DNA from: Reclinomonas americana ATCC 50394
Taxonomy: Eukaryota
Direction: 5' to 3'
Length of the DNA: 49,110 nt
Assembly: GCA_048213135.1 (NCBI GenBank)
Contig: PS015099.1
Coordinates: forward strand, 8,547-57,656
Shown here: piece by piece, positions 1 through 49,110 of the stretch
Layout: each line of letters begins with the position of its first letter
Numbering within the stretch: position 1 is the stretch's first letter
Notes under the pieces: model-generated
The model's input: the letters and a program-made list of their open reading frames with translations, nothing else
Told to the model about the DNA's origin: nothing
The model's database searches: none
Program-made: the position numbers and the translations under genes

Positions 1-3000
1 CAGGCGTTGTCGCACTGCCCGCCGGCGTTGTGTGAGAAGGTGGAGGAGTATGTGCGGCGAGTGGCGGAGACGTGGGATGCGGAGTGGGAGGCGTGGAGGG
101 AGGCAGTGGCGCCGGGTGATGGATGGGTGAGGAGAGATGGAGAGGGGGAGGAAGAGAGATGAGTGATTGAGAGCTCTCACAGATTGGTTGCACGCACACA
201 TATGCACGCACACACACATACCCGCACACACAGAGAGAGAAAGGGCAGCGTGATCTTTGAGAGGTCTCACAGTGCATTGGAGATCGTGATCACTTTGTTT
301 CGAGCTTTCTCATTGAGTGTGGTCTGCAAGGTTCTCACAGTGTGACACCCTCAGTCGCACTCACACACTCTCAGTCACACCCTCAGTCGCACCCTCAGTT
401 GGACTTCTGTGCTGAGAGAGGTCTCACTTTGCGAAGAAGATCGTGATCACTTTGTTTTGAGACTCTAGAGAGTGGGAGAGGGCAGAGTGCAGGGTTCTCG
501 CGTTGTGGTCTTTCTCTGTGGAGAGTCTCACTGCTGATGCTGATCGCGATCGCTTTGTGTCGAGCTTTCTTGTTGACTCCTGAGTGAGGGAGAGGGCAGA
601 GTGTAGGGTTCTCGCAGCTCTTTGTCTGCGGAGAGGTCTGGATCACTGATGTGATTGCCAGTGCTGTCTGCGCCTTGTCTCCTGAGAGCATGAGGGAAGG
701 AGAGGGCTCACAGCTTGTGAAGGAGACCCAGAACTGCAGTGTACGCGTAGAGTTGGGAATGAAGCCTCGGCGCTTGCGTAGAGCTCCTTTTGCCGTGCGC
801 AGAGTCAGCCAATCGTCTCTTGTCTTTCAGAGTGACGCCGCCCTCGCTCTCCCACACCCTCTCCCTCTCCCTTTTCCCCTCCGTCTCCCTCTCCCACTCC
901 CTCCTTCTCCCCCCGCCTGCAATCTCATAGTCGTGTGTTCTTCCGCTCGCAGATTGTTCTCCCCGCCGGTCGCCACTCGCACGACCACCACGACGACACC
1001 ACCGCCGACGAGATCATCGGCAACTTTCTCGATGGCTCCAACACGCGGGAGAAGGTGCTCCTGATTCTGGGCGAGATGGGCTCTGGCAAGACACAACTGG
1101 TGGGTGGTTCACACAGACTCACCTTACGCTTCGCGCTCTTTCCTGACTCACCCTCCCAACAGCTGAAACGAGTCGAGGTCGATCTGTGCCCGGTGTGGGT
1201 GTGGGGCGTGTCGCCACTGCCGGTGTATGTGCGGTTGAGCACGGTGCCGCCAGAGGCGGTGTACGGCGGGAAACTGATGGAGTACGTGCTCGGGCGGGAG
1301 GGGTTTACGGCCAGCGAGGTCTGGCTGCCGTCGTGTGTTGGGCAGGGGGAAGAGGAGGAGGCACTGACGACCCGTACTGTGCAGTTTGCTCTCATGCGAG
1401 AGCAGACGCCGATTCTGCTGCTGCTGGACGAGTACGAGAGCGTGCATGCGCCGCCGCAGAACATCTATCGAGTCAATCACATGGAGGTTTGCACTTCCGT
1501 GCCCGGCATATTCGTAGTCGTCGAGCTCATTATTATTTCCATTGCGTCACCGGTTAGCGCTGGCGTGCCAAGGTCATCATCACCTGCGACGAGGCGCACG
1601 CGCATGCCAAGCTCGGTCTCAACTATGCCACCTACTTTAGTCCCGACGCCGACAGCATTGTGTGGATTGGCGAGGGTTCCTCGCTGGCGCAGTGCGTCTT
1701 GTGGCCACTCGGCAAGCCGCACGTGGAGGCCCTTCTCAGCCTGTTGCGTGCTGCGGGAAGCGTTGAGAGGTCTTATTACTCCCCGCGCTCATCCATCCCT
1801 ACCAGGTTTGTCGGAATGGGCACCACCGAATGGACGAGTGCTGTGCAGTTCAAAGACGCCACGCGTCAGATTCCCGGCAGTGAGCGACTCGTTCGCACGG
1901 TGTGTGTCTATCTCTACTTCCTTCTCGCTCGTCACGCCTCTCACCACCGCCTCCTGCAGCCGTTGATGTTGATGATGCTCAGTCGGTTGCTGCCGACCTC
2001 GGATTTCACCGACGATGTGCTGCCGGGAGACATTCTCCGCGCCTACGTGTACTGGTGGATTGGCCAGGAGCGCTTCAATGTGGAGGTTTGTGTGATTTTC
2101 TTCCCCCGCACCCCACTAATGACTCACATTGCATTCGCCAGGTCGGCGAGAGCGCCACCCTCGCGTCCCTCATTCCCTCGTTCTGCAAGCAACTCGCCGG
2201 ATCCATGCTGGAGTCCGACGCAGTCGTGGCCCACACGGTGCGTTGTTGATCAGGCGGTGCCGTGTGAGCGATGATTGCTCACGTGCAATGCAGGTCGTGT
2301 GCCGGGAGATCTTTTCCAACTTGGTGACGGCCTACGCCGACACGCTGCCGGAGCTCCTCTTTACGGCGTCGCTGTTGACGCAGTGCGGTCGCGAAGAGTA
2401 CCGATTTATTCATCCCGCGTTCTTTGACTACTTTGCCGCCGAGGACACGGTGCAAGCATACGTGCTGGGAGGCGATCGGTTGAACATGCACGCGGTGAAT
2501 CGCTTCAACTTCCAGACGTCGCATGTTGCGTCTGCGCGGCACCCCTAAAAGAGGAAGAATGAGCGAACGAGACTCATGGCAGCCTGTCGCAGATGCAAGT
2601 GCTGCTGTTCATGTCGGAGACTGTTCTGCGGAGCAGCACGTTGGTGGATCGCTTGCTGGAGGTGATTCGATCGTCGCGCGCAGATGCTGGGTGGGCGCAC
2701 GCCGCCTCGAATGCCATCACCGGTGAGAAACGCGTGTCATCCGTGCTTCTTTTGTTAAATTCGCGACTCATTTGTCATTCAGTGCTCAACTTGGGCGGCT
2801 TCAACTTTACCGGCGTCGACCTCACGGGCGTGCGCATTGCCGACGCTGATTTGTCGGGGGTTCGTGATGCTCACCACGATACTTCAATTTTGCACATCTG
2901 ACACAAAGTGCTTGTACACGCGCAGGCTTTCCTCGACGGCACGATTCTCGACGACGCCTTTATGTCTGGCTGCCGCCTGCGAGGTGATGTGTGGCTGTTG

Positions 3001-6000
3001 CCCTCGCCACATACACGAGTCGATCACTCATCGTCGTGGTTATCGATACAGATGCGTGGCTGCGGAATGCGTCGCTCAACCGTGCAGATCTGGCCAATGT
3101 ACAGCTCGGCCAGCTGCCACCCATTGTGGTACGCTTGCGTGCACGGTTGTGCTTGTTTTGCATGACACTCACTGCGTCGCGAAATCACGCAGCATCGCAG
3201 TCGTGTCATGTGGTTCGACGTGTCCTCTGACGGCAAGATGCTTGCTGTTGCCGGCGATGATGGACTGACGGTTTGTCACGACCATCGTACGTCACAGCTC
3301 AACGCTGACTCTGGCGCGCGCATTGCAGATTGTGTACAACATGGCCACCTTCAGCGTGGTGCAAGTCATTGGCGGCCACACCGGTCCCGTGAACGCCTGC
3401 GCCATGTCGCCCGACGGCAAGCTGGTGGCCACGGCCGGCGAGGACTTGACTGTGCGCTTGGTGAGTGCGATATGCTTGGTGTGTGAGGGCCTCTTTAGCC
3501 AACTTCTTGCTGATTGGAGCTCTCGTACAGTGGGAAATTGGATGGAGCAAGTGTCGTCGGTTGAATCGACGAAACACACAACCCTCGCGCTCAGTGGTAC
3601 GTCGGGTCGAGTGCCTGGCGGGTGTTCGTCGCTGGCGCACTGATATTGCTCTTGGTGCAGTCATTTTCTGCCGACGGTCGTGTGTTTATCAGCTGCGGAG
3701 CCGACTGCGTGCGTGTCTGGAACGGCGTCACTGGCAAGAAGGTTGCGCAGCGTCCTTTCATTCCGCGCACGGGAACATGCCTTCCTCCTGTTCTTCTCAC
3801 TCTCGCCTGTCGTCGCCCGTTGCAGCTGAAGAACCTGGGCAAGAAGCTTCCCGGTCAGCCTGCATGTGTCGCCGTTTCGCCGGACAGCCGCTACGCAGTG
3901 GCCTCGGGTGCGTAGGTCACGAGCAAGAGTCACTCTTCTCTTTGATTCGCTGACTTCTTCGTGTGTGGTAGATGGTGACTCGGATCAGGTGCGAGTATGG
4001 GAGCTGGAAAAGTACACTGCGCTGCTCACCTTTCCCGGCAACACGGTGGTGTCGAGCAAGTCATTCTTCAAGCTCGGCAACCGCATGCTGATCGCCATTG
4101 GTCTCTACGAGAATGTGACGGTGGTCGAAGTTACCAGCGGTCGCGTCATCACCACGATGAGTGGACACTCGGAGCGTGTCACCTGGTGCGGATGTTTGTG
4201 TCGATTGACCCCGAGACAGCAAGCGATTTACAGTGTGGTGATGATACGTCTGCAGTGTGGCATTCAGTCCCGACGGTACCATGCTGTTCTCGGGCGCGCA
4301 GGTGAGAGCTGCCACCGCTCCCGTCATGGTCACGACAAGTTATCATAACAATCTTGTGCCATGTGCAGGATGGCTCCTTGCGACTGTGGGACACGCTGCG
4401 TGGCTCGTGTTTCTGGAGCGCCAATGGGCACACGCAGACCGTCACGTGTACCGCGTTCTTGCCGTTCCAGCCAGTCGGCACCACGGGTCCCATCCTAGTG
4501 GTGCGTGCACTCTTTCTCTGCAAGAGAGAATCCCCCTGCTGATCTTACTCACGGTTGCCTGTGCAGTCGTCGAGCCACGACGGCAGCGTGCGCTTCTGGG
4601 AGCCCACATTGCGTCGCAACATGGCACGCTGTGGCAGTGAGAATGGACACGTTCCGACCAGCGACAGCGAGGTCAGCGATTTGCAGGTGCGTGATGGTGA
4701 TCGGTCTCCACAATATAGTTTCTTCAGTGATCTCATCATCAGCTGTTGTTGTGGGTGCAGCTCGTCGGCGCCGACTTGGAGGCGCAGATTGTGCTGTCGA
4801 GCTATGTCGATGGCATCTGTCATGTGTGGAACATGGCCACAGTTGAGTGAAGCATCACGCACCTCGCCTCTCTTGTTTTCCCCTTGGCTGACACGCGTGT
4901 GCAGGGTGATGGTGACGCACTGCTTGACACGTTCGTCTGCCAGCCTCACCTCCTGTTTTGTATGCGTAGGTCGCCACGTACATTCAGTGTCGACGGTGGT
5001 GGATGTGAGTGCCGTGGTGGTGCGGCCTGGCGACGGCATGGTCATTGCCGTGGCCTCGCTGCAAGAGCCTGATGTGGTTGGTGTTTGATCCCGCCTTTCA
5101 CTCGATTGCTTGTTCTCTCTGACCATCACGCACACAGTTGGTGTTTGATCTGATCACTGGCACGCTGATGAGCCGCATGCGTGGTCACGACGTCAGCGTG
5201 TCGTGCCTGCGTGTGTCACCCACGGAACCCACGCTGCTGGTGTCTGGTTCATGGGATCGGTGTGTGTTGGTGCTCCTTCGCATGGTGATTCTTGCTTGCT
5301 TACTCGCCACGCAGATCGATTCGCATGTGGAACTTCCAGACGTGCCGTGCCATGCACTTGCCGGTGTTGACAGACAACACCGATGCCATCCAGTTGCGTG
5401 TTTTTCTCTGTCTATCCGTGTCGCGGGGGCGACTTATGCTTGGCACAGGTGTCTGGCCTTTTCACGCGACGGCCTGATGCTGGCGTCGGGCGCCGCCGAC
5501 GGCAAAGTGTTCCTCTTTAATGTGCGTGCCTGCTGTGGTTCCTCTCACACCAGCCACTCTCTCATCCCACACCTCCATCAGCCCTCCAAGGCCCGCCTCA
5601 TTCGTCAACTCTCCAGCGGCCATCACAAGCAAGTGAATGCCGTGGCCTTCTCACCCGACGGCACGACACTGGCCAGCGCAGCAAATGATCTCACCATCCG
5701 TCTGGTCGACGTGACGAGTGGCGAGTTGCGCCACGTATTGTGCGGCCACGCACACCCCGTCAAGGCCGTCTCGTGGTCGCCCGATGGTTTGTCACACAAT
5801 TCGTGCCTAGTCTATACACGCTCTCACTTGTCGTCGACGCCCTCTGCTTTTGGCAGGTCACATGATCGCCAGCGGCTCCACTGCCGGCACAGTTCGCTTG
5901 TGGCGGTACCTGGAGAGTCCGTTCTCGGTGCGCCGCATCGATGTGCAAAAGGGCAGCATCGGCTGCCTTCAGTTCACGCAGCAGAAGCCACTGTTGCTGT

Positions 6001-6419: not shown

Positions 6420-6554
6420 ATGTGGATGGCAGTTTGCGCTCACGTAACGGTCGATTTTGCCACTATTTTGCAAGTGACGCGCATCCGACAGACAAGCTCA
6501 CTCACAGGCAGGCCGACTGAGAGATAGAGTGTGAGTGTGTGTGTCACAGACAAA

Positions 6555-7519: not shown

Positions 7520-10493
7520 ATGCTCAGTCCTCCCACCTCCCTGGGCGCACTGCGACGACCCGGCTCACTGCCATCACTGGAGAGCGCCGACCGCGGTCAG
7601 CAGGCAGTGGAAGAGTTCCCTCCACCACCACCCCCACTGCGTGAGAAGCGCAATGTGCCGTCATCGTTGCGTCTCTCCCAGTGTTGTCTGAGCGAGTGAG
7701 GCGACTCATTCTCTCACAGAAACGCGCCTGGGCGACCGCCGACGGCACCGGGAGGCGGCCAGTCATCGTCTGTAATGTCCTCGTCGTCATCGTTGTCGTC
7801 GACGGCGATGGTGTCGTCATCATCAATGTCGTCAATGTCCAAGCAGCAGCAGTCGCAGCAGCAGCCGCCACCGCCGCACTATGATGCCACGATGGCGTCG
7901 GAGGATCGGCCACCGCGGCCCATGTCGCGGTCGTCGTCGCGGTCGTCGTCGGACTCGTCGCCAGTGGAAGGGGAGAGCGAGGCGGATGCGGCGGGTTGGG
8001 AGACGGTGCGGGCACTGCTGCCGTTGCTGAAGCCGACGCACCAGAGTCACACGCTGGAGGAGGCGCTGGCCACGATTGAGAATTGTCTTGGCGATGCGGT
8101 GATTGTGCACGAGTCGCGTCGTGAGGCGGTGTTGGCGCGCGTGTATCCGCTGGCGGACCCGGCTACTCTGGAGGCCGCCGGCGACGAGGGCATGAGCAGT
8201 CCGGTGGTGTGTGCGCGTGCCGCACGCTTGCTGCTCACCATTGGCCGGCAGGCTCGCCTGCCCAAGGTCATCAAGACCGCCTGTCACGTCATGTACGTGC
8301 TGTCAAAGAAGGACCAGTTCGACGGCGTGTTTGTGCAGGAGAATTTGCTCAGTTGCGTGCCCACCAAAGAAATGGTTGCGCGGTGGTGCCGTGAACGGAA
8401 GCTGACTTTTTCGTGCTGCCCCCGCAGGCTGTTTGATTAATGTCGTCAACCACGAGTGCAACTTGCGCGACGCCCTTGGGAGCACGTGTATGGTGTACGC
8501 TGTCGGCGCGCTGAAGAATGTGACATCAGCGACCGCCGATGTGCGGCGCCAGCTGGTCGACGAGCTGTCGGTGGTCGCGTCGCTCGTCAAGCTGATGGAC
8601 GGGGTGATGAGTGCGCAGCCGCACAGTGCCGATGATTTGGGTATCATTTTGGTGCAGGTACGCTCCTCTTGTCTCGCCTCGCTTCGTGTTGTTGATAACT
8701 AATGATGCGCCAGGCCACGGGATGCTTGCGCAACTTGGCGGCTCAATCATCGAGCTTGACGCAGTTTGCACGTGGTGGTGTGGTGAATGTGCTGCAAAAA
8801 GTGATGCACTCGTACGCCGACCGGACGGAACTCATGTTGAATGTGTCGAGAATATTGAGGTGCGTATCTATCCGAGCTGTTGGGTGGGGGAGTACCTGCC
8901 TCATCATACTCACTGCCTCCCTCGTTGCACCCATCACAGCAAGGTGTCGTTGCACGAGACGTGTGGTGCGCAGTTGGACGGCACTGCCGAGCAGTGCGCG
9001 CCACGAGAGGTGGTGGCTGACATGGTGCAGTGTGTGTGGATGCAAGTGAGTACCTCGCCTTCATTCCCCTTTCCCTCCCTCCTGTACTGATTGCTGGCAG
9101 CGGCGAGCCACGGCGATTGTGGAACGAATGTGCTTTGCGCTGTCGAATCTCACGACGTCGATGACGGCACCCGAGCACCACTCCAACCGGCTCGGCATTG
9201 CGCACGCCCTGTGTCACGACCAGAGTGGCGAATTCAAGACCGGCACCGAGGCGCTACTGCAGATTCTGGAAGAGCTGGCCGTGGACCCGAAGGGGAATGC
9301 CGCCGCGCTGGTCAAGGTTGTGCGTGTGATTGCCAGCATTTCCACGGACGAGGCCACTGGCTGCTTGATGGTCGAGAGCCCACAAGTGGTGCTCCTCGTC
9401 AACATTCTTCGTTGCGTCTCACCTCCATGACGCGAGACCGGGAGTTGTTGCGTTGCTGACGGAATACACACAGGCGATGTGACAGCGCTGGACGCGGAGG
9501 AGCTCGTGCTGAATGTGGCGTCCCTCGTGCACAACTTGACCTACTATGCCGACTCGCCGAGCCACGCACTGCTGCCGCACTCACAGGCTCTCATTTCGAG
9601 TTGCGTGGGGCCTCCAGGAACATTGATTTCCTCACCTCCAATGTTTTGCTGACGGTCTCTTTTTTGTCGTGTGAACACAGCCCTCGCACCGTATCTGCTG
9701 CACGACAATCCGGAGCTGGTGCTGGAGAGTGTGCGCGCCATTGGCAATCTGGTGCGCTGCGGAGCCATGCACGAGTCGGCCGGCATTGTGACTGGTCCCG
9801 ACAGTCTCGGCTGCTGTCATCATGCCGTTGCGTCGAGACATCGCTATGATCGGCGAAGTGTGCTGTTTTGACACTCACTCACACTCTGCGTTGCAGATTT
9901 CGTGCAACGTGCACCACATGGCGTCGGTGTTGCTCGACCACTCCGAGCGCGAGCTGGCATTCGCAGCCTCGGGCCTGCTCTGCAACGTGACGGCGTGCGT
10001 GTCGCCGTCGGACAGCACGTCGGCCGGCGACATTGTTCAATACCTCGGTCGCTCGAGTGGTGGCCCGAAGCTGTGCGACCTCATTGAGCTGTCGGTCACC
10101 AGTCGCGACCTGCAGCTACTGTCGGGTGCGCTAAAAGCACTGTACAACATTTGTTTCGCGGTGGACCCGCAAGGTGTCGCCGGCATGCTGCGGCTGTACG
10201 ACGAGCTGCACATGGATCACTTGGCGAACATTCTCGGCGACGCACTTGCCTTTGCCACGGGTTCGCATTCTCCACACCTCTCCTGCTCAAGTAGAGGTAG
10301 CGCTCACACCTTGCATGTCGCAGAATGCATTCGAGGATCGGGCGACGATGCGCTGGATGCCGCCGAGTGTCTGGAAGTCGGAGGCAATCTGCGCCGACTT
10401 GCTGTGCAATTGCACGAGGAAATGGCCTCGCGTCCCGTATCCGAGAGACCCAGCAGCAGTAGTACGAGCCATCTGGACCTCGAGGCCATTTGA
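7520..10493 (+). CDS. armadillo repeat protein, ARMC2-like (start uncertain; 9 introns)
   Basis: Ser/Pro-rich N-terminus (RPPTAP). ARM helices with ARMC2-like segments: VYAVGALKNVT, ILVQATGCLRNLA, ELMLNVSRILSKVSLHE, RMCFALSNLT, LVKVVRVIASIS, EELVLNVASLVHNLTYY, ELVLESVRAIGNL, ELAFAASGLLCNVT. Stop TGA at 10491-10493. The family call rests on motif recall, not on a search. Confidence 0.75.
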
Positions 10494-10635: not shown

Positions 10636-13600
10636 ATGGGCTCCACAGCCTCCGCATCAGCGCGGGAAAAGGCGGAGAGAAAGCGCAGGAAACTGGCACT
10701 GGAGACCTCTGGTGAGTGAGTGAGTNNNNNNNNNNNNNNNNNNNNNNNNNNNNNNNNNNNNNNNNNNNNNNNNNNNNNNNNNNNNNNNNNNNNNNNNNNN
10801 NNNNTAGAAAGGGAAAGAAAGAGAGAGAGAGGCAAAGAGGGAGGGAGGGAAGGAGAGAGACAGGAGAAGAGGGGAAGTCATGAGAGCGGGTCGTGCTACA
10901 GCCTCTGCAATCGAGGAGCGAGAGTGATAGGCAGAGAACAGAGGCAGCTGTTCGCGACTCTTGGATCTTGAGTTGCGAAAGAGAGAAGCAGGATCATCCT
11001 TCGACAATTGTGAACAGAGAACATGGGCGGCTGTTCTCGTGTCATTCTTCAAGCTTCTGTTGTGAGGGATGGGGAAGCATGGAGGATACAGCAACCTCTG
11101 TAATCGAGGAGCGAGAGTGATGGTCAGAGTACTGAGGCAGCTGTTCTCGACTCTTGGATCCTGAGTTGCGAAAGAGAGAAAGAGAAAGGGAGAAAGCAGG
11201 ATCATCCTTCAACACTTGTGAACAGAGAACATGGGCGACTGTTCGCATGTCACTCTTAATGCTTGTGTTGTGAGAAATGGGGAGAGAGAGAGAGAGAGAG
11301 GAATCAATGAGCTGGATCATACTTCGACACCGTGCGATCGAGGAAGGAGACAGCAGAGATCACAGAATAAGGATAGGCGCACTCGCTCAGAGAAGCAGCC
11401 ATTCCCATTCGCCCTTTTTTTTTTGACTTGTTTGGCTGCTGGTCAGTTGCTGTGGGCGTGCATTGAGGACAGCGCTGCGTGGATTGCCGTGCGTGTCTTG
11501 TCGGCGCCGTGGGCCTCGCAGATCCACTTGGCCAACTGCCTCGGGCACATGTCGCGTGAGAGTTGCGCTTGCGCAAAACTGACTTTGGCTGCTCGTCGTG
11601 TTTGCGTGAGCCGCTCAACTCTTTCCTCCTCATGTGCAGCCAAGTACCACAATCGGCTGGTGGAGTGGGGGGTGTTGCATTCGGTGTGCAAGCTGCTGAC
11701 GTCGGAGCAGCCGTCGGTGCAGTACCATGCGGCTCGCGCTATGCGTGAGTTCGCCGCGAATGGGGAGGTGGAGGCGCACGTGGTGCGAGAGAACCCGATC
11801 CCGGCTCTGGTCGCTCTGCTGCCTCGCAATAATTCGTACGCTCGCACACGAGTGGCGAGTCTCGCCTCGCTGGGAGCACTGGCCGCCAATGGTGACATGT
11901 TGCACCAAATCATTGTCACTCGTGGCGCACAGCTGCTGCGCGAACTGGCTGTGTTTGGCGACGACATGACACGCAGCGCGTTGCACAAGGAGTACATTCT
12001 GGAGATCTTTGCCTCGTTCACGGTTCGTCGACGCTCCATCCAGCTGTCACGCTCTCTTGTCTCCTTTCTCATCGCCCCACGCAGGTCTCCTTTGCGTCGC
12101 AATCATTGCTGCGCAACGAGCTCTTCTTTCGCCCAGACATGCTCGACGAGCACATGAAGGAGAAGCCACTCGACAATGTCCTCTTCCTCACCAAGAGCCG
12201 CAATGTGGTGCACGTGGCCGACGCCATGTGGGCGCTGGCCAATTACATCGAGTCCGACGCTCTCCGACCGCCCGTCCTCGGTCATCAGGGCGTGTTCGAC
12301 ACGCTGTTCCGCATGGCCAAGATCCCGTACCCGCAACTGCGCTTCGAGGTGGCGCGCTGCCTGCTCGCAATGGCCTGCAATCGCGAAGACGGCTCTCAAG
12401 GTTTCCGTGCTGCCCCCTCTCCTTTTGCTCTCTCTCTCTCTTGGCTCACTCACCCCGCACGTACTCCACAGCCGAGCTCATCAACCGCAAGGGACATCTG
12501 GTGGTGGCGTCGCTGGTGGCCGAAAATCAGCTGCGTCTGCCCGGCGACGATACGGCCGATTACACCAATGAGTTTCTGGTGAATCATGCATTTGCCATTC
12601 TCACACGGCGTCGTGTGTGCGACCCGGATCCCTACAACCCACTGGATGTATCGCGAGTGGCCGATGTGATTTCGCGATCCGTGGCCACAGATGCGCTGCT
12701 GCACTTGGCGCTGGAGGAGGTTTGTGGTTGCACATGCTATTCTTGCACACACTATTTCTGACACTGGTGTCACAGGATTATGTGGACCTGTTCCCGGCGC
12801 TGCCAAACCTGCTGCAGTCGTTGGTGATGCTGATTGGCTGGGACCACAATGTGGGATTCATTCAGCAAAACGCACTGCAGCTACTCACTCGCTTCATGTT
12901 TCGCTGTTGCGTCACTATGTGGGGCATTCTCTCTCACTCCCTCGCGCACAACTGGCTCACTTGTTCAACAGTGCACGTCGGAGACCTGAAAAAGTTGATT
13001 CGCGATTTCCTCGTCTTTGACAAGCTGACGGTGGCGCTGCGGTCACGCGAGGTCGCCGTGCAGTATCGTGCCTGTGACGCACTGGCCACGCTGCTCGAGC
13101 GCACTGGTGAGCACATTCTTGCTTGGTTGCAGCAGTAGCTGCGGTTGACTGACTTTGCGAGCAGACGTTGACGTCGAGCAGGAGCTGCAGGAGAGCCAGG
13201 TGGCGCTTGCCGTGATGCGATTGCTGCGCAACATAGAGAGCCTGCGTGTGGCCGAGGAGGCGCTGCGTGCACTGGCGGCGCTTGCCGAGTACAGTTGCGT
13301 ATATGAGCGTTCTATGTGACGTGATCACTTGCACACACTCACTCCCACACTCGTAGCCTCGATCGCCAACATGGTGCCGGGCAATCGAGTGCTGAGCAAC
13401 GTGATTGAGTTGGGATTCTCGGTCCGACCGTTGGTGAAGGAGCGCGCCGCAAAGGCCATTTTGCGACTAGCCAAGGTCGGCGACGCCATGGCCGATCTGA
13501 TTACCAGTGATCGACACGATGGCTTCCGACCACTGGTGTCCATGTTGCTCGGCGACGACGAACCGCTGCGCATCTTGGCCATGCGTGCGATTGGCGAGCT

Positions 13601-30660: not shown

Positions 30661-30663
<3 letters not shown>

Positions 30664-33853: not shown

Positions 33854-33970
33854 ATCGGAATGAGTGCCGACTGAAAAATGCCTATCCCCCCCACACGCAC
33901 TAATCTCTTTTTCTCTGTGTTGATTTTGATGATGTTATTTTGTTGCTGTTGTTATTATACTGAGCGAGTA

Positions 33971-36187: not shown

Positions 36188-38459
36188 TCATGCCGCCACC
36201 CTTTCCTTACCCTTCAGGTTACGCTCCTTTTGATGTCGCCGACATTGGAGTAGCTTTGATGCTTTCGCGCCGAACAACGTCATGCATTCTTCTGACNNNN
36301 NNNNNNNNNNNNNNNNTGCCGCCATGTGCGGCCGAGTACTCCTGGTAACAGCGCAGGAAAAGGGCGACGGCGGCGGAGGGTGACTCGGTGGAGAGAGTTT
36401 GACTGCGCACTTGCATGCCGACGGCTGTCGAAAGGGGAGGGTACGTGAGCGAGGAGCTCGGGAAGTGCAGTGCGTTGCGACTCAACTGTACGACTCGTCC
36501 ATGCGCCTGCGCAGACGCGACATGACTCGTTGAATGTGATTCGACGGTCGCAGCAGAGCGCCAATGCTGTGAAAAAGAATAGATGCATGAGAATGGCTGA
36601 CGTGTCCTTGCACCGCGCGCATGTCAGCGTCGACGCAACATGCGGCCCGTGTCGAGCAAGGCACCACTGAGACGATCGCGCTGCACCAGTGCGCGAGTGA
36701 GCATGGCCAGTGAGGCACGCGAGCGAACCGTAAGCATCGGCTGCAGGGCACTGTCGCCGTGCTGCAGCGCCAGCGCGCTGACCGCAAAACCTGCAACAGG
36801 GTGAGTAATCCTTGCTCCGTAATACCGCACTCCATAAAACCCGCACCCTCATGGTCCAAATCCAGCGACTGGGAGCCAATGGTGAAGCAAAGGCGCGACT
36901 GAATGTCACTGAGCTCGTACGGTCGCATCAGGGGCACAAAGAAGCGATCGAACGACGCCGGCGGCTGCCAGTCGATCACCAGCAGACGGTGGGTGAGTGC
37001 TGCAAAATTCACCGCGTCGGCCAGCTGCTCCATGCGCCGACCAATGCCTGTGCGCGGATGGCGCAGAGTGAACAACTCTGTCGATGGGGATCGATCTTAA
37101 CCAGCAGCCTCACCTCCCACCGGCTGCCAGATGAGCACTCGCGGCAAGCAGCCACGCGTCTGTGTCACCAGCTCCCGTTGCCAGGCGAAAAACGATGCCA
37201 CCAGCTCCGACTCTGCGGTCGGCGAGTGCCACGCGGAGAACTCGAATGGTCTCCACTCGGTTTCTACAAACGAGTCAGTGGCGTAGAAAACCGATGGTCC
37301 ACATCGCTGCCGCTCACCAAACAACACATCGTAGAATCGCCTCTGAGGTCGTGTGGGCGACAGAAGCAAGTCGACCTCCACATTCTCGTAGTGCATGCAG
37401 TTCGACTCCTCGATCTGCACCCACACCGCCCACACGAGCAGTGCCAGTGCAACAGCAAGTGTGGCCACGAGAAGAATTCGCATGCACCAGTCACTCTGCA
37501 GAGCGATGCAGAAGCACAGTTGTTATCACAAGACGAGCGCCACAACCACACAAACGCCCCCAACCCCACGCACCTCGCGACGCCGCCGCTCCTCCGCCTC
37601 CCGCTGCTTCTGCTGCTCCTTGGCGATGCGTAATCTCAGCAGCGACTCGGCTGCGTTGGAGACTGGACCGCGTCTACCTGGCGCTGGTGTGGAAGCAGTA
37701 GTAGCAGCAGCAGCAGCAGCACCAGCAGGTCGCCGCCCAGCACCAGCCACCGCCGCTGCGTTGTTGACAGACTCTGTCAATGTCGAGATCGATCCACCAC
37801 CAAACACTCCAGCACCATCATCCGCGTACTGCAGACGCCGCCGAGTGCTGCCTGTCGCTCGCGTATCGCGTCGCGGAGGTGGCTCGGTGCGAGTGGACAG
37901 CGCACTCACCAGAGGCTACAACACCAATCAGTTCAACATCGTCATCATCAATCATAATCATCTGATGTGGCATTTCGCGCCCAACCTTGCCACGCACAGT
38001 CTCGGCGGTCACTGCCAGTGGGCGTGCGTTCTGTGACGGTGCATCGCCCTCCGCCATGAGATCATGCAAGAGGCGCTGCCAGTCGGCCTGCGACGATGCG
38101 GTGGAGGAGGCGGTGGAGGAGAGCGATGACGTGGATGTGGCGGTCTCTCCTCCTCCTCCTTGATGGTGCTTGATGCTCCACGGATGCCGCTCTGTCGCAC
38201 CAGACGCTCCTCCTCGTGCTGCTACCGCTGCTGCTGCTGCTTCATTGCGCCCCGTGCGTGTGAACGACCATGCCCGATCGTACAAGTACGATGAGGAGCC
38301 GCCATTGCCGCCACTGTCATCGTCGTCGTCATCATGATCGGCGGGTGGCACTGGCGAGTGATACGAGGTGGGTGTGACGAGTGGAGAAACATCGGCACTC
38401 GGGGGCGCCAGGTACAGCTCCGAGGCCAGCACCGGTGGGGCCACAAGGCGCCGGCGCAT
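36188..38459 (-). CDS. type II membrane fucosyltransferase-like glycosyltransferase (GT23/GT37/NodZ-like); part hidden in gap 36297-36316
   Basis: Long disordered N-terminus, then a TM helix ILLVATLAVALALLVWAVWV. Motifs GIGRRMEQLADAVNFAALTHRLLVIDW, IIGALLRPSNHIQ and YTVGMQVR (GDP-fucose-binding motif I like xGxH/QxR). The C-terminal end after the gap is tentative. Confidence 0.65.
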
Positions 38460-39261: not shown

Positions 39262-42200
39262 ATGAAATACGCTTCTGTTCTGCTCGTGCTGCTGGGGCTC
39301 GGCCTCCTCCTGGCATGTCTGGCCAGCACTGCTCGTGGTTTGTTCGCCCCCCTGGCCCTGCCCACCTTCATATTGAGGGCTGTGACTGACACATAAGGTC
39401 CGATCTCTCTTGTCTCTTCTGCAGCTGACTTTTACGAGGATGCCTCGCTTGGTGAGTCACGATTGCAACAACATTGATGCACGTGAAATCTGTTGTTTTG
39501 ATCGTCTGTGACTATTGCAGAGGATGACGGCGAGGAGGGTATCCTGAAGGCCATCTGCACGCCGAACGGTGGCGAATGCAACCCGAACGTACGTCTGCTC
39601 GCCGACTGCTCCACCTCGTTGCAATTGTCGGTGAAATAATACTCATTTCGATTGCGCAGGGTCAATGCAAGAAGGGCAAATGCGAGTGTCACTACAAGTT
39701 GCGTCTCCCTCTTCCTCTCACATTCTTTCCTCTCTGTTATTAACGCGCTGCGCGTGCAGCTGCTTCAACTTTGGTGGAAACGACAATCGATGTGACTAGT
39801 TGCGGAGCTGTTGGTTTTTCCGAGTGGATTCTCCCGCTTGCCTAATCTGTTTGTTGTCGACTGGTGCAGCTGGAAGGGACCGAAGTGTACGTGCCACAAG
39901 TACGCCACTTGGTGAGTGTGGAGTACCATCGTTACCGTGGCAGCAGCACGTCATCCGCTGACTGCGCTTTTTCGCAGTTCGAGCCACGGCCACTGCGATT
40001 CCAGTATGTTCGAGTGAGCGCATATAAATTCTTGAGGTTTTGACCCGGTTTCTCACACTGCGAGAGCACAGACGGCTTCTGTGTGTGCGACAAGGGCTAC
40101 TATGGACAGAAGTGCAACAAGAAATGCAGCGTTGCGTCTCTCCTCCTCCCATGCTACGTGCTGCCGGTCCGCCGGCTGAAAATCTCGTGCATTCCGCAGA
40201 ATGACAAGGCATGCAGCGGACACGGCTTCTGCAACGCCAAGGGCGGCTGCACGTGCGAGAACAACTGGGCTGGGGTGCGTGCTTGCCAAGCTTCTATCGT
40301 TTGTGCGCGAGACTCTGTTGCTTACCTTTCGCTCTTTCTCGCAGTACGAATGCGAGAAGTGCGCTCCGAACTTCTACGGCGACAAGTGCAAAGTGTTCTG
40401 CTCGGTTCGTGCGTGTGATGTAACCTTCCTCCTCGAGCTCGCCAGGCATCTGCTCTCATTGCTTGCGCCCTGCACACAGGACAAGAAGACATGCAACGGG
40501 CATGGCAAGTGCAACAAGCACGGCAAGTGCGATTGCAAGGAAAACTATTATGGCGACAAGTGCGACGTGTTCTGCTCGGTGAGTGTGTGTGGCGTGTCAC
40601 GCAGGTTGCATCTTCTGCCCCTCATGGATCCTCGCACACAGGATAAGAAGTCGTGCAATGGGCACGGCAAGTGCCAGGACGACGGCTCGTGCGATTGCAA
40701 GGACAACTACTACGGCACTCACTGCAGTGTGTTCTGCTCGGTTTGTGCACACGGCACTTCACTCCACTGCCTACGCATGCTGCTGGCTCACATTCCCAAC
40801 GCAGGACAAGGACACCTGCCACGGACACGGCAAGTGCAAGGACGACGGCTCATGCAAGTGCAATGAGAACTACTATGGAGACAAGTGTGGCGTATTCTGC
40901 TCGGTTTGTGCAAACTTACACTTCTCTCTTCTGCTTCCATATGCTGATGAGCTCACGCCCTTGACGCGCACGCGCAGCCTCACGACACGTGCAATGGACA
41001 CGGCAAGTGCAAGAACAATGGCTCGTGCGACTGCGAGGAGAACTACACTGGGGTGCGTTCATGATCACAGATTCTCGGTTTGGCCGACACGTCCACGCAC
41101 GCAGCGCTTGCTTGTGCAACAGGTTGTGCTCACCACCGGTTTGATGTTGCACAAAAAAGGACTCGTGCGACAAGTGCGCCGAGGGATTCTCGGGCCCGAA
41201 ATGCACCAAAAAGCCCCACCCCGACAGCTGGCGAAATGGCATTCGCAGTCGCGGCAACGCCGACGGCACTGGCACTGACTGCACCAACCCGGTGGGCGGC
41301 GGCGTCACTGGTTCCGAGGCCGTGTGCAAGATCGCCTGCAATGTTGCGTTTCTTATGTGTGCAGCATGTGTGTGAGTGAGAGAGAACGAGGATCCGGAGG
41401 AAGCTGATGTGTGGACACAGGCGACATTGACGTGCAGTGGAAACGGCGCATGCCTGCCCGATGGAGGCTGCAACTGCACCTACGGATGGGCTGGGGTGCG
41501 TGCCACTGTGTGCACGCTAGCAGTGCTCATGATCAGTGTGTCAACAGTCGATAACCGAGTGTTGTTGTTGTGATCACACAGTTGCACTGCGACCAATGCG
41601 CTCACCTTCACTGGGGCCCGGAGTGCACCTTCTGCGAGGTACGTGTAGATACCTTGCGCACATGACGATAGCTTGCCTGCTCACTTGTGCAACTCACAGC
41701 CGAACATCTCCTGCAACGGCCACGGCACATGCAGCACGAATGGAACCTGCGAGTGTACCGGCAACTTTAACGGGGTACGCTGCGTTTGTCGATGCTGAGC
41801 ACACTACTGCATCAGCTCAGGCACATTTGCAGGACGACTGCTCCACCTGCACTGATGGCTTTTATGGTCCCGACTGCAACGTCACCTGCAGTGTTCGTGA
41901 CTTGTACTACTAATTTTATTATTGTCTCTTTGTTGACAGTCACTCTCTCTTTCGACTGACTGCATCGCGACTGATGCACAGGCCAACACCACATGCAACA
42001 ACAACGGTGTCTGCAGCAGCACCACAGGAGAGTGCGAGTGTGACTTTGGTTGGGATGGGGTTCGTATCGATTGATCTGTGACTTTGATCTGACGTGTACC
42101 ACACTCACGTCGTAATGCAGGGTGATTGTGCTACTTGCGCTCCTGGCTTCCTCAACCTCAATGATACTTGCCAGCCGTTCTGCAACGTTGCGTGCTCACA

Positions 42201-43937
42201 AGAACATTATCAAAGGGGACTGATGACTCAATTTTATTTCTCGCTTTCACAGTCGACTGCCGACTGCAACAATCACGGCACGTGCGCCAACGGCACGTGC
42301 GAGTGCGAAACCCTGTGGGCTGGAGTGCGTCATCTCTGCACCACCGTCTGCCATTCATCTCCTGGTGTGCATTGACTCCTGTTTGCACACACTGCAGGTC
42401 CACTGCGAGAATTGTGCTCAGTCCGGCTTCTACGGATCCAACTGCGACGTTCAATGCGATGTTGCGTGCGTGCGCTCGCTGTGCAGTCCGTGTACTGTGC
42501 ACACTTGGCCCATACATTGTATGTATGTGATAGGCGGCCACCAACTGCACCAACCACGGACAGTGCAGCAGCGACGGATCATGCACCTGCAACGACGGCT
42601 TTGCCGGAGTGAGTCACACTCGCGCCGCTACTCCTCTGCTGAAGTTTCCTGTCGCTTACTGTACGCACAGCCCGACTGCGCCAACTGCACGGAGAACTAT
42701 TACGGCGACGATTGCGCTGTCTTCTGCGAGGTGCGAACTGATTTTCACTGCTACCACACGACGACACAACTTTTTGCGACTGCTGACACACATTGCTCTC
42801 CTCCATTTTCTTGATCGCCACGCAGGCCAGCATCACGTGCCTGGGCCGCGGCACATGTGACGGCAACGGCACTTGCGTGTGCAGCGGTAACTTTGCCGGG
42901 GTAAGTGCAGTCGTCAGCAGTCGCCACTGCAAACAATACCCACACTCACTCGTGACTCTAAATCGATCAGCCATACTGTGAGCTTTGCAAGTATGGCTTC
43001 AGCGGCGACAATTGCACGGAGCGGGAGAACAACTGCGATGTTGCGTGGACGCCCTCGAGCACAACCACTGACCACATCACACTCATCACACACTCACACA
43101 CAGCCCGCCGTCAATTGCACGGGCAACGGAATCTGCTGTGCTGACGGTACTTGTGCCTGCAATGCGAACTGGACTGGGGTGTGTCTGCCTTTCAGCACTG
43201 CGTACTCGACACTCACTCCAGCATCGCTACTTACCCACTTGCTTGCACACAGCCTCACTGCGATCAACCGGCAAAGAACAACACCAACACGACATGCTCT
43301 GTTGCGTGCGCACACAGCGTGTCAGGTGATGTGCCTGTGTCGCGCCTCACCTCGTTGTTCCCCTTCGCAGTCCAACTCCGATTGCAACAATCACGGCACG
43401 TGCACTAACGCTAAGTGCGAGTGTTATCAGGATTGGTACGGCAACAAGTGCCAGATCCCAGTCACCACCGACTCGACATGCCAGTATGGTGAGTCGTGTG
43501 TGATAACAAGTGCGCACTTGAGGCATTCACCACGCCACTTTTCCTTTCCCACCAGACAACGACTGCCTCGCCCAAACCCTCGGTGCGAGGGCCGGCAATG
43601 GCGGACTGATTGACGGCGGGCGGTGTGTGAACAACGTATGTGAGTGCGTGTCGGCCAATCCGGGCCTGCACTGCCAGTGCCGCGCAGGTCAGTCAGTGAT
43701 CGCACCATTTCCTATGAGCATCCCTATTCCCCTTACCGAGCGAGCACACACACAGACTCGATTCTGTGCCCGGCGATTGACGCGCGTCTCGCCGTCTTTG
43801 ACTGGCACACCGGCAATTTCCTCGGCTGCACTGGTGTGTGTCAGTAGTATCACCGCCCACAGCCTTTCGATTTAGAGCCTGCTCGTGACCGGTTGTGCAT
43901 GCATGCTGGTGCGAGCGGTGGTGACAAGACCAAGTGA
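39262..43937 (+). CDS. secreted multiple EGF-like (tenascin/laminin-type EGF) repeat protein, ~32 introns
   Basis: Signal peptide MKYASVLLVLLGLGLLLACLASTA. Tandem C-x-GHG-x-C-x(3)-G-x-C-x-C-x(2)-N-[YW]-x-G-x(2)-C units, each encoded by repeating exon modules. No TM helix; stop TGA at 43935-43937. Confidence 0.9.
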
Positions 43938-45078: not shown

Positions 45079-45114
<36 letters not shown>

Positions 45115-46800
45115 AGGTGCTGCTGCTGCTGCTGCTGCAGGTGCTGCTGATGATGCGCGGCCATGGTGGCGGCCGTCACTGTCACCATGGCAGAGGTGGT
45201 AGTGGTGGTGGCGGCGGCGTTCGCTGTTGGTGTGGTCGCCTTGGCCGTCGTGGAGGACGAGGTCGGCGTGGTGGCGGTCGACGATGCCTCACGACGACTC
45301 TTGGAGGGCGTGACGGCGCGCGAGACGGCGGGCGTGTTGCGGCGCGAGGTGCCGGTGACGGGGGTGGTGGCCCTCGACTTGCTGTTGCGACCAGAGGCAC
45401 TGTTGTGCAGGCGCCACACGCGGCCGAGATCGCCGTTGCCGGCCAGATCGGCCAGCGAAGTGCTTTCGTCCACCTGCTAAGCAATAAGTGTTGAGTATCA
45501 TCAAGAAGGCAAAAAAAAAGGAGTGCACGACGGATCGCGTGTACTCACCTCCAGCTCCTGCCCGTAGAACTGGTTCTGGAAGGGAATGCGTGTGACCGCA
45601 GTGATGCGGTCCTTTAGATCGCGCACTGTCATCATGTCGGCGTCTTGCGGATCGCGGTCGATGCGAATCGCGTGTCGCGGCCCCAGCAACACATGCCAGC
45701 CGCTCCAGCCCTCCGGCATTAGCGCCAAATGAGAGCCCTCGACCACACCCTGGTCGAGGAGCGACAGGTTGTCTTTCAAGTTGAGGTTGCCAAGGCGCAT
45801 TGGCATGGCGTACACCGGAATGGAGAGCTGCTCCGTCAGCGCCCAGCGCAGCGAGTTGACCGAGTCCGACAACTCGGTGCGCACCGATATGTCGGCACCG
45901 TTTGGCAGGCGGAGGGTGATGCTGGCCGAGGTGCTCTCGGCCTCGTGCTGGTTCTCCAAGCGGAAGCACGCACCCTGTGCCTTGGCCGGCAGCAGCGTCT
46001 GCAGCACCTTGTCGTCCGACTCGCCCGCCAGCGGCACACCGTACCGCTGCGTCGCGCCCGAAATGCCCGTGACCTCGGTCACGCGGCGACGCAGATCGCC
46101 AATCGTGGGCAACACTGTGGTGTTTCATCGAGTCAGGAGGGAGTGAACCGATCGATATCGATCGATCGATCATGCAATATGCAAACTTCACACAAACCGT
46201 TTGTGGCAGTGTCGATTCGCACTGCTTTTCGCGGTCCATACAGCACCCAGTAGCCCAGCGGGCCCGTGGCTGCCATGTGCACCACAGAATCGCGCGCAAT
46301 GCCACAGTCGCGGAGTGTCCGACCGTCGGCCAATGCCTTGCCGGCGCGAACCAGTCGCATGGTCTGCATTGGTGGGTGCGCAGTGTGATCAGCACCACCA
46401 CAGGAAGAATCGCGACGGGTGGCGCGTGTGTGCACAGTTTGAAAGGATGAGAGAGGGAGCGAAGGAGAGGAGATAGAGAGAGAGAGAGAGTGAAGTGGGA
46501 GTGTTGTGCACGCGTGTGACAGTGTCGTTCGATCGCTATATCGCTCGTATCGCGTTTGTGCAGTGGATGTGGTTGTGTAACGCAACAGTAGGCACCACCG
46601 TGTAGTCGTACGGCCCCTGTGTGCACGTACAAGAGAACAAACGTCAAAAATCCGACTGATGCAAAGGTCGAACACCGCACACACACACACACAGACGCAA
46701 CAGACTCCGACATCATCCACTTGATCGTGTCGACACACTCGTCGGGATCCACTTGTAGCTGGGCCTCACCCAGTGCCGTGCGCACAGTCAAGCATATCAT
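44188..46800 (-). CDS. multi-ubiquitin-like-domain protein with disordered poly-Q linker and C-terminal SAM domain (5 introns)
   Basis: UBL-like segments MICLTVRT..VDPDECVDTIKW..MRLVRAGKALADGRTLRDCGIARDSVVHM and ITLRLPNG..ELSDSVNSLRWAL..LKDNLSLLDQGVVEGSHLAL, plus TIGDLRRRVTEVTGI and TVRDLKDRITAVTRIP. C-terminal VENWI..ILQVLEENGFSRLEAISVLTEADLKDMGLSRMGERKTLL is SAM-like. Confidence 0.8.
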
Positions 46801-46917: not shown

Positions 46918-49110
46918 ATGGACGACGGAAGGTTTCACGTGACTGTGAAGCTCGACAATCGCCGTGCATTCCCGTTCCACATTGATGGTGTGTGTGCGTG
47001 TGTGTTCGCGTGTCTGCTGGCGACTGTGGAGTGATGCATGCCTCATTCGGTGGGTGTCACATCATCATCATCAGAGACAACCACCCCGTCCGACATCAAG
47101 TGGGAGATTGCGGATGTGGCCAATGATGTGCTTGTGGTGCCACCGGTGAGTGTGTGAAAGGGAGACTCTGGCGCAGAATTGTGGTGGCCTCCAACACGCT
47201 CTCACACACACGCGCCCGTTTTCTGTTTTCTGCGCAGACCATGAAAATCGTTCGTGCGGGCAAGGTCATGGGCGACGGCACACCCATCATGGACACCGAC
47301 ACCACCTCGGGTTCTGTGCTGCACATGACAGCCACGGGACCACTTGGCATTTGGGTCCGCTATGGTGAGCATTCTGTGTGTGTGAACCCGTTTTCCGTTA
47401 TTTTCGCTCCAGCACATCGTATTAATATTCCCCAAAAACAGGATTGCGAAAAGCGCATCGGCTGGACACACGACCTGCCGATAGTTGCGTCGTCGCCTGT
47501 ACATGTACTCTTAAAGGGAGCTTTGCTGGAGGGGGCTGGATCTCCTCTCCTTCTTGTGTGATTCTAAATTGTCGTTTATTCTGACCCTGTGCCCTTTCCT
47601 TCACAGTGGAGAAGCTCACGGTCGGCGACCTGAAGCGCACGATCACGCAGCTGACGGGCATTCCCGACACGCAGCAAGAGTACGCGGCGCCGTTGAATGT
47701 GCCACGCATTGCGCAGCAGGATGCGCTGCGACTGGCCGACTTGCTGCCGACGGGTGCCTACGGTGCCATGTTTACGCTCATTGTCAGCAACCCGGAACTG
47801 GTCGACGTGCCGGCGGTGGTCCGCGTGCGCACCACCAACGGCTCCGATGCGGTGGAAGTGCAGACCGAGTGTTGCGTCGCCCTGCAATGCGCAAGAGTGC
47901 ATGTCGTGGCTGCCTGCTCACATCTCTCTCTTGTATCAGTGACGGAGCCTGTCTCCAACCTCAAGTGGGCCATTTGCTACAAGACTGGCTGGGCGGCCTT
48001 TGCCATTCCGCTCTGCAAGGGCAACAAGGTCCTCAAGGACAACTTGAGGTGTGTGCACGTGATCATTGTTTTGAATTCCGAGCTGCAACTCACTCGCAAC
48101 CCTCGCAGTTTGATGGAGCAAGGCGTGTGCGACGGCGACGAGCTGTGTGTGTACTCGAGTCAGTGGCCTGGCATGTACGTGATGACGAAGCATCGCACGG
48201 CGATCCGTCTCGATCCGCACCCGAGTGACACGGATCGCCTGACGGTGTTTGACATGAAGCGCATTACGATGGAGGAGACTGGAGTGCCGATGGAGAGCCA
48301 GGTGAGTGCACTAGTGCCTCCCTCTACAGTCTCGATGTTCGCACTGTGGCTGACCCTTTTGCGCGCCCACAGTGGTATGCTGGACTGGACGGAGTGCACG
48401 AGAGCACGCTGCTGGCCAGCCTGCTGATGGGCGACAACATTGGCTGCGTGTTTGTGTTGCAAACTGAGCCGCCGGCTGGCTACCATGGCCAGCGTGCCCA
48501 CTCGCCCACTCGCGCACGCTCTCCGTCTCGCGCTCGATCTCCGTCTCGACCTCGCTCACCATCGCGAGCGCGTTCACCGACCAGCTCCTCCCGACAACAT
48601 CACGGTCACCACCACAGCAACAGTGGTGGTGGCGGCAGCGGCGGCGGTGGTGGAAACGGACAAGCTCCGAGCACGCCCCGTGGCAGCTCGATTATCGAGG
48701 CGCGCGACCGGCAGCGTCAGAGCATTGGCACTCCACGACAGCGCCACTCGCGCAGTCACATGGATTCGCCGCGCATGCAACGCCCGGACACGACCACGTA
48801 TCTCGAGTCGCCGAGCACGCCGCGTACACCTCGCGGTAGCGCATCCACTCGCACCGTCGACTCGCCGTCGGCGTACTCGGACGCGAGTTCGTACATGGAG
48901 GCGCCACTGACGCCACGCAACCACTACCATCCGACACCAGTGCAGCAGCAACCGCCGCCGCCACCGCCGCAGCAGCAGCTGGCTCACCCGCAGCCGTACC
49001 GCCCGCAGCCTGTAAGACCACAGCCGCAGCAGGCTCAGGAGCCACCGCAGTCGCCACGCATGCGTCGCTCGAACAGCATCTCGCAACTCGACCTGCAGTA
49101 CCAGCAACAC
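46918..49110 (+). CDS. multi-ubiquitin-like-domain protein, paralogue of 44188-46800 (3' partial, 7 introns seen)
   Basis: MDDGRFHVTVKLD..TTPSDIKWEI..TMKIVRAGKVMGDGTPIMD..VLHMTATGPLG..LTVGDLKRTITQLTGIPDTQQEY..PVSNLKWAI..VLKDNLSLMEQGVCDGDELCV..LTVFDMKRITMEETGVPMESQ. An RSP-repeat/Gln-Pro-rich tail then runs off the window. Confidence 0.8.

Follow-up and report, generated by a model that had tools for sequence, protein, structure and literature searches.

How is the start of an intron recognized when the exon in front of it does not end in G? The question is raised by a stretch of DNA from Reclinomonas americana ATCC 50394 (contig PS015099.1, positions 8,547 to 57,656), which is 49,110 bases long and is called the window below. 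A first-pass annotation listed 36 donors (5' splice sites) in which the intron starts with GTTGCG, GTTGAG or GTTGTG. It proposed that this form is the default where the last exon base, position -1, is A, C or T, and that it compensates for the missing G. In what follows, a slash marks the cut and H stands for A, C or T. Donors of the pattern GTTG[ACT]G are called the heptamer class, after the commonest form GTTGCGT, and all other donors are called ordinary.

A second class of donor sites

All 36 listed positions carry the motif (GTTGCG at 31, GTTGAG at four, GTTGTG at one), each straight after A, C or T. On the two strands together, GTTGCGT is found 29 times, compared with 10.7 +/- 3.4 times in 100 shuffles that preserve dinucleotides, none of which reaches 29. 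The word GGTTGCG, with a G in front, occurs at the level of chance (9 copies, with 10.0 expected).

Introns were called with a self-trained Viterbi gene finder that combines codon log-odds with phase tracking and allows GT...AG introns of 40-400 nt. For signals it has a first-order donor model restricted to positions +3 to +9, matrices for the acceptor and the branch site, and a length curve. Because the -1 base is never scored, its distribution among the called introns is an unbiased read-out. The converged gene finder gives 14 genes with 145 introns (median 67 nt, CTSAC branch motifs, YAG ends) and recovers 33 of the 36 listed sites. Twelve listed sites are already recovered in a first pass that has no splice-signal model; that pass is noisy, with many false introns, and served as a seed only.

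Among the 145 introns, GTTG[ACT]G donors follow a base other than G 33 times and a G once, compared with 32 and 78 times for all other donors (p=2.4e-13). The same division is seen in a strict subset of 87 introns, which are 45-120 nt long, break the reading frame if retained, have a branch-like motif and end in YAG (22 to 0 compared with 16 to 49, p=1e-10). After correction by homology, the curated set holds 146 introns, 145 of them with a readable -1 base, and the counts are 34 to 1 and 31 to 79 (Fisher p=5.6e-14). The heptamer class makes up 35 of the 146 introns (24%), which bears out, for the window, the earlier estimate of about a quarter. It is present in nine of the 12 predicted genes that contain introns.

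The word is used almost exclusively as a donor. The 29 copies of GTTGCGT comprise 24 called donors, one more site (47484) supported by a paralogue, two copies inside introns and two that are antisense or intergenic; none lies in a sense exon. GTTGCG is found in sense exons as six words, all without T at +7. By comparison, H-GTGCGT is a donor four times and occurs unspliced 15 times in predicted sense exons. When retained, 25 of 34 class introns break the frame. A branch-like motif is found in 91% of the 34, and all 22 class introns of the strict subset end in YAG.

A single G-ending exon has a class donor, as had been claimed. It precedes the intron called by the gene finder at 3742..3825 (+), which starts G/GTTGCGC. 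The hand counts behind the first-pass annotation are likewise about right, except that the pattern GTNNGT is found at 14 of the 31 non-G exon ends with ordinary donors, rather than at about ten. Two of the listed sites do carry the motif but are not established as donors. At 4842 (+), none of four local exon models gives a frame-consistent gene with that donor, and the final model uses the weak donor 4847. The site at 35817 (-) is not called and runs into a GA microsatellite and an N-run. With these reservations, it is confirmed that a GTTG[ACT]G donor class exists in the window and is tied to exon ends other than G.

Junctions placed by homology

Exon-intron junctions can also be located by spliced protein-to-DNA alignment, which here allowed GT...AG gaps only and had no donor model. 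An example is the ARM-repeat gene at 7520-10493 (+). An exhaustive profile-free search with one of its exons found a protein, P0132, of 652 residues and ~47% identity. Since this 652-residue protein sits on a contig of 2145 bases, its own gene leaves no room for introns.

The P0132 alignment places seven introns within 7994-10256, and four of them have H/GTTGCGT donors with gap-free junctions. These are A/GTTGCGT at 8352..8427 (76 nt), C/GTTGCGT at 9411..9473 (63 nt) and A/GTTGCGT at 9600..9680 (81 nt), all in phase 1, and C/GTTGCGT at 9827..9896 (70 nt, phase 0). The alignment also shows that three odd, non-consensus introns called by the gene finder in this gene are false, and replaces them by introns that start G/GTACGC (8658), G/GTGCGT (8860) and A/GTGAGT (9046). 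The last of these had been named before as an ordinary donor after a non-G exon, and the alignment puts it exactly there.

The canonical HSP70 gene (25110-26429, -) provides another example. The alignment of P0038, which is 88% identical, places an intron of 66 nt in phase 1 at 26090..26155 (-). Its donor, A/GTTGCGT at 26155, splits an Ile codon, and the isoleucine is identical across the split. The stretch NPLNTIFDAKR is common to the two closest HSP70 relatives, while most of the other HSP70s retrieved show Val there in place of the Ile.

Finally, two head-to-head paralogues with repeated ubiquitin-like domains (44188-46800 on the minus strand and 46918-49015 on the plus strand) have intron positions that are partly common. 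Their alignment supports the junctions at 46586, where ACT/GTTGCGT begins an intron of 223 nt in phase 0 (46364..46586, -), and at 47871, where T/GTTGCGT begins one of 69 nt in phase 1 (47871..47939, +) that the gene finder calls too. It also reveals an exon of 42 nt (47442-47483) that the gene finder had missed. This exon lies before the intron A/GTTGCGT at 47484..47606 (+, 123 nt); the exon is supported by the paralogue and the exact donor comes from the signals. A further intron in this pair, T/GTTGCGT at 46617..46701 (-, 85 nt), is called by the gene finder and has a donor that is ambiguous with an in-frame GT at 46692.

Seven class donors (8352, 9411, 9600, 9827, 26155, 46586 and 47871) are thus confirmed at the level of residues by alignments that know only GT and AG. 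The listed sites behave as real donors.

Related introns change class with the last exon base

Repeats and paralogues contain introns at the same position, in which the last exon base has sometimes changed. In the EGF-like cysteine-repeat gene (39262-43847, +), one junction, found after C-S/D/N/E, is present in 12 copies, all in phase 0. Where the exon ends in G (TCG four times, GAG once), all five donors are ordinary. Where it ends in C or T, six of seven donors are GTTGCGT and one is GTTCGT. The six are AGC/GTTGCGT at 40131..40199, AAT/GTTGCGT at 41343..41420, AAC/GTTGCGT at 42187..42252, GAT/GTTGCGT at 42461..42533 and again at 43040..43103, and TCT/GTTGCGT at 43301..43370, all identified by repeat comparison. 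The first has the same position as four sister-repeat introns of the form TCG/GTKNGT, with K for T or G, whose donors are at 40405, 40579, 40741 and 40904 (introns within 40405..40977).

A second junction of the same repeat, after W/Y/F-x-G, has six copies, four ending in GGG and two in GGA, and all have ordinary donors. In the ubiquitin-like pair, the counterpart of ACT/GTTGCGT (46586) in the neighbouring gene is CCG/GTGAGTG (47146). When the paralogous positions are pooled, ordinary donors are found at 10 of 10 G-ending exons and GTTGCGT at 7 of 10 others (p=0.003).

On this comparison, the proposed compensation for an absent -1 G looks borne out. Because introns of common descent switch class with the last exon base, the association points to selection rather than to a relic of the site of insertion. 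Nor does the near-absence of -1 G from the class need a mechanism of avoidance: with a -1 G the loose ordinary motif suffices, and there is nothing to preserve the costly heptamer.

Anatomy of the two classes

The ordinary donors that follow a G (n=78) are loose. At +4 they have A in 32%, C in 35%, T in 28% and G in only 5%; +5 is G in 83%, +6 is T in 63% and +7 is G in 50%. The commonest forms are GTGCGT (10), GTGAGT (9) and GTTTGT (9). Their +3 base is G in 59% and T in 28%, the latter in forms such as GTTTGT and GTTCGT; eukaryotic donors do not usually have a pyrimidine there.

The class donors (n=34) are much stricter. After GTTG, +5 is C in 91%, +6 is G by definition of the class and +7 is T in 79%, with 31 GTTGCG, two GTTGAG and one GTTGTG in all. 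Position -1 is A in 38%, T in 41%, C in 18% and G in 3%. The C at +5 is found in 31 of 34 class donors, compared with 21 of 63 at the matching position +4 of ordinary donors, where A, C and T are evenly spread (23, 21 and 19; p=2.8e-8). It had been suggested that the two kinds of site are the same 7-mer cut one base apart. As an alignment of strings this is correct, but it is true only for GTGCGT, that is for 10 of the 78 ordinary G-ending donors. The idea that the class is the ordinary consensus slid by one base is not supported as stated.

Apart from the donor, the introns look alike. Class and ordinary introns show no difference in length, GC content, branch motif spectrum, branch distance or pyrimidine content. 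Class introns can be counted among the major-type GT-AG introns, which are defined by GT and YAG ends, a branch motif that lies 10-30 nt before the 3' end, and a reading frame restored by their removal. They also show the anti-correlation between -1 G and the intron-side consensus by which two-class donors are known. The normal-register pattern GURAG is absent, since the class has U at +3, G at +4 and C at +5.

What may read the heptamer

How well a donor might pair with U1 small nuclear RNA (snRNA) can be predicted by folding positions -3 to +9 against the 5' end of U1, with a free choice of register, bulge and loop. Ordinary G-ending donors reach a mean duplex energy of -7.2 kcal/mol and are separated well from GT decoys in exons (mean -2.5 kcal/mol), with an area under the curve (AUC) of 0.94. 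Class donors reach only -1.1 kcal/mol in the best of any register, and their AUC of 0.30 puts them below the decoys. Ordinary donors after non-G exons are intermediate at -2.3 kcal/mol (32 sites). In this model, canonical U1 is predicted to fit the ordinary G-ending donors well and the class donors not at all. The class does have the outward marks of a shifted register, namely an extra base after GU and the consensus G-U at +6/+7. The first-pass annotation saw in these marks a shifted or bulged pairing, but with the human U1 end, modelled without pseudouridines, no stable alternative pairing is predicted.

The explanation that we prefer, tentatively and with slightly less than even confidence, is that GUUGCGU defines a second class of 5' splice site, sufficient in itself, within otherwise ordinary GT-AG introns, and that it is read as a whole by a dedicated reader. 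Ordinary donors, G/GU[G/U]NGU, would lean on the exonic -1 G, and with it they fit the 5' end of canonical U1 well. After exons that end in A, C or U, this support would be absent and the intron would usually bear the strict heptamer, with its G and U at +6/+7, one base deeper than the ordinary +5/+6. The putative sequence-specific reader would recognize the entire heptamer, while cleavage would remain at GU. A dedicated reader is favoured because the class keeps a strict C at +5 that mismatches U1, because H/GTTGCGT is used in preference to the better-pairing H/GTGCGT, and because the specificity for the heptamer is near-absolute.

The simplest candidate for such a reader would be a U1-type snRNA whose 5' end is complementary to the heptamer. 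The same model was applied to 1156 U1 5' ends that carry at most three substitutions. Of these, 230 have a class mean of -4 kcal/mol or lower, with the canonical end counted among them, and each of the 230 was scored on every donor set. Those that are complementary to the heptamer are predicted to separate class donors almost perfectly (AUC 0.99) and ordinary donors poorly (AUC 0.60). A single altered U1 serving both classes was also considered. None of the 230 ends fits, the best compromise having AUCs of 0.89 and 0.80.

The major spliceosome might therefore use two guides for its 5' splice sites, canonical U1 for G-ending exons and a second U1-type snRNA or other small RNA, complementary to GUUGCGU, for about a quarter of introns, those after exons ending in A, C or U, so that the last exon base would decide which guide chooses the donor. 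This more specific version is rather unlikely to be right. The broader proposal of the first-pass annotation, an altered snRNA or splicing factor, is consistent with the data; any such component is putative, and the window holds no snRNA gene. What the reader is, and that the rule is valid across the genome, we infer from the window.

Several points weigh against a dedicated reader. The reader is itself predicted from sequence alone, and all counts come from a single 49-kb window, none being genome-wide. A division of major introns between two U1 guides is not known to us from any eukaryote. Elsewhere, too, there are strict donor positions with a mismatch to U1, such as the U at +4 in yeast, and these are explained without a second U1. 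Ordinary GTNNGT donors after non-G exons are also predicted at the level of decoys (mean -2.9 kcal/mol, AUC 0.55, 13 sites), which shows that the -1 G dominates the energy model and that the model is a blunt instrument. Moreover, the U1 5' end used is the human sequence printed in PMC4856993, from which that of the host may differ, and pseudouridines, U1C and other proteins lie outside the model.

Some of the sites themselves are also less secure. Four of those listed (4842, 35817, 46701 and 47484) are ambiguous or without a settled model; paralogue alignment prefers the in-frame GT at 46692, 9 nt downstream of 46701, and alignment alone cuts at 47492 instead of 47484. Finally, nine of the 34 class introns keep the frame if retained, and these are called from signals and coding score alone.

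The main rival explanation needs no new component. Canonical U1 would read GUUGCGU in a register shifted by +1 or with the extra U bulged out, and contacts with U5 and U6 as well as U1-associated proteins would stabilize the pairing. We regard this, which the first-pass annotation implied by analogy, as doubtful but worth serious attention. The U1 5' end is almost invariant across eukaryotes, which speaks for it. The heptamer can also be written as G/GUGCGU with one G changed to U, in which +1 G can stand for -1 G, +3 U for +2 U, +6 G for +5 G and +7 U for +6 U. The crudeness of the energy model softens the objection that the predicted duplexes are at or below decoy level, and in human cells there is proof of pairing in the shifted as well as in the +2/+3-bulge register (PMC4856993).

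The choice of words within the donors is harder to reconcile with canonical U1. It predicts A at +5, and a spread of A, C and T as in ordinary donors, whereas C is observed in 31 of 34. H/GUGCGU should serve at least as well, yet it is used only four times and ignored in exons 15 times. Other slid forms, such as GTTGAGT and GTTTTGT, should be about as common, but GTTGAG is found twice and GTTGTG once compared with 31 GTTGCG; GTTTTGT was not noticed in the donor lists, though no count was made.

In another explanation, an old mobile element that generates introns has the heptamer as its invariant 5' end, so that the non-G exon end marks a landing site instead of compensation. Uniform intron starts without an exonic consensus are what such an element would leave, and some algal introner elements carry their own splice site. 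Several observations speak against it. A blastn match of any kind is found in 7 of 528 pairs within the class, which is the rate of the controls (100 of 5460 pairs of other introns, 61 of 3465 pairs between the groups). Because the interiors are unrelated, there is no young introner family, and the whole-intron similarity among copies that defines such a family is absent from the 528 pairs. Length and 3' signals are the same as in other introns, same-position paralogous introns differ in class by their last exon base, and the absence of the heptamer from sense exons points to a present-day function. We consider a mobile origin quite improbable.

It is more improbable still that a minor-type spliceosome, distinct from the major one and equipped with a U11-like guide, splices the class. 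In its logic, a strict intronic 7-mer that lacks an exon consensus does resemble U12-type donors. The defining motifs of that type, an RTATCCTT donor and a TCCTTAAC-like branch site near the 3' end, are both lacking, and branch spectrum, branch distance and pyrimidine content are those of ordinary introns. A share of 24% is also far above any known minor class, the human one being given as 0.36% in PMC4856993.

The least credible explanation is an artefact of chance motifs or of gene models built circularly around the motif: all the gene models are predictions, a self-trained donor model could reinforce a frequent word and three odd donors in one gene did prove false, but the shuffles do not reproduce the GTTGCGT count, the -1 base is never scored, seven junctions come from GT-AG-only alignments, 12 listed sites appear in the signal-free pass, and the falsely called introns are all non-consensus and none is of the GTTGCGT class.

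Genes of the window and their class introns

The window has a G+C content of ~58%, eight N-runs, and GA and CA microsatellites. Its coding content is eukaryotic and very rich in introns (~5 per kb of coding sequence). Except where noted, the class introns below are identified by motif and gene finder.

The first gene (935-6520, +) encodes a STAND-type NTPase with a P-loop NTPase region, pentapeptide-like repeats and many WD40 repeats, and has 30 predicted introns. Besides the G-ending case at 3742, its class introns are T/GTTGCGT at 1743..1805 (63 nt, phase 2) and, further along, T/GTTGCGT at 2525..2592 (68 nt, phase 0) and A/GTTGCGT at 5393..5448 (56 nt, within a WD40 repeat). The ARM-repeat gene has, in addition to the four introns aligned with P0132, C/GTTGCGT at 7666..7719 (+, 54 nt).

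A large ARM/HEAT gene with a product of 2205 residues (11444-20607, +) holds ten class introns. They begin with A/GTTGCGC at 11562..11639 (78 nt) and T/GTTGCGT at 12906..12971 (66 nt). Three are called in the signal-free pass too: A/GTTGCGT at 13294..13356 (63 nt), T/GTTGCGT at 13609..13673 (65 nt) and T/GTTGCGA at 13809..13875 (67 nt). Next come A/GTTGTGT at 15196..15258 (63 nt), with a rare T at +5, C/GTTGCGT at 16428..16510 (83 nt), and T/GTTGAGT at 17098..17159 (62 nt), with a rare A at +5. The last are A/GTTGCGA at 17803..17865 (63 nt) and A/GTTGCGC at 18374..18438 (65 nt). A word-index search with an ARM exon of this gene gave one match of 33% identity and no orthologue, so these ten donors are those of the gene finder alone.

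Two HSP70 genes lie 3 kb apart on the minus strand. The canonical one has two introns and is cut by the N-run at 24385-25105. Its closest matches are environmental records with 88% and 83% identity, followed by plants with 79-80%. The divergent paralogue (20756-22147, -) is an open frame of 464 codons in which no intron is called, with ~41% identity to canonical HSP70. A search with it matches canonical HSP70s only, again at ~41%, and a metagenome scan gave one match of 31% and no relative.

Three more class introns are found on the minus strand, A/GTTGCGC at 28379..28445 (67 nt), A/GTTGAGT at 36425..36486 (62 nt) and T/GTTGCGT at 36567..36639 (73 nt). Between the first and the other two lies a gene for an EPTP-repeat protein (33971-35237, -). 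The EPTP domain is mainly known from animals, and an Atlas look-up shows bacterial clusters as well. A neighbouring gene call of 218 low-complexity codons rich in Ala, Gly, Val and Asp (33229-33882, -) lies opposite a long open frame on the plus strand (32879-33853) and is probably false or on the wrong strand.

In the EGF-like gene 31 introns are predicted; their positions are fixed, with roughly two in each repeat. Two class introns in addition to those given above, A/GTTGCGT at 39698..39759 (+, 62 nt) and A/GTTGCGG at 39799..39869 (+, 71 nt), are identified by gene finder and repeat comparison. The model of this gene has an implausible exon of 1 nt at 42121 and a doubtful stretch at 41421-41783.

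A tRNA search found no tRNA in the window, and Rfam gave zero families at the gathering score and no snRNA even at E<=1. At E<=1 there are just weak miRNA-like, sRNA-like and snoRNA-like matches, several of them over microsatellites. The miRNA-like and sRNA-like ones at 7290-7500, 30630-30760 and 45035-45156, some on both strands, adjoin microsatellites or N-runs. Such sub-threshold matches are most likely low-complexity artefacts.

Comparison with known systems

How 5' splice sites are chosen when they match U1 poorly is an open question, and the current picture is one of two overlapping donor classes in a single register. The window suggests a clean natural system for asking which component recognizes the intron side of a donor, how cleavage is fixed when the register is displaced, and whether U1-type guides can number more than one in a eukaryote. 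The matter has a practical side as well: in this genome, about one exon end in four would be put in the wrong place by gene finders trained on just one donor model. Literature searches turned up no report of a GTTGCG-type donor class (only primers and unrelated matches), although the genome paper or its supplements could still describe one.

The nearest likeness is to the shifted (+1) and bulge +2/+3 registers of U1 at human 5' splice sites, reportedly described by Roca and Krainer in 2009 and by Roca and colleagues in 2012. Human sites of this kind share with the class an extra U after GU, the usual +5 G and +6 U displaced to +6/+7, cleavage at GU, and an exon end that need not be G. They are, however, rare, and they show strong complementarity in the alternative register, unlike the class described here, with its 24% of introns, mismatching C at +5 and about -1 kcal/mol of predicted pairing. 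In Tan et al. 2016 (PMC4856993), 68 human bulge +2/+3 sites are predicted, of which curation leaves 54, and 1.5% of 201,541 sites have validated non-canonical registers.

Human variant U1 snRNAs likewise raise the thought that other donors could be served by U1 copies whose 5' ends are altered; in the window any such copy is putative. The splicing role of the human variants (PMC3561869, PMC10870369) appears minor or unproven.

U12-type donors share a long, strict intronic motif that is independent of the exon. They differ in the motif itself and in their special branch site, and the class is far too frequent to be counted among them.

The two-class donors, in which a U5-side AG//GUNNN is set against a U6-side NN//GURAG, share the anti-correlation of exon-side and intron-side strength, and in both systems the two kinds are interchangeable in evolution. 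Known two-class donors have a single register and overlap broadly, whereas the intron-side class of the window has an inserted base, a near-invariant heptamer and a -1 G in only 1 of 35 cases. The words 'bulge' and 'shifted' do not occur in the review of two-class donors. What sets the window apart is the combination of four features: the class has no predicted fit to canonical U1, its donor is a discrete heptamer that contains an extra base, it accounts for 24% of the introns, and it almost never follows a G at the end of the exon.

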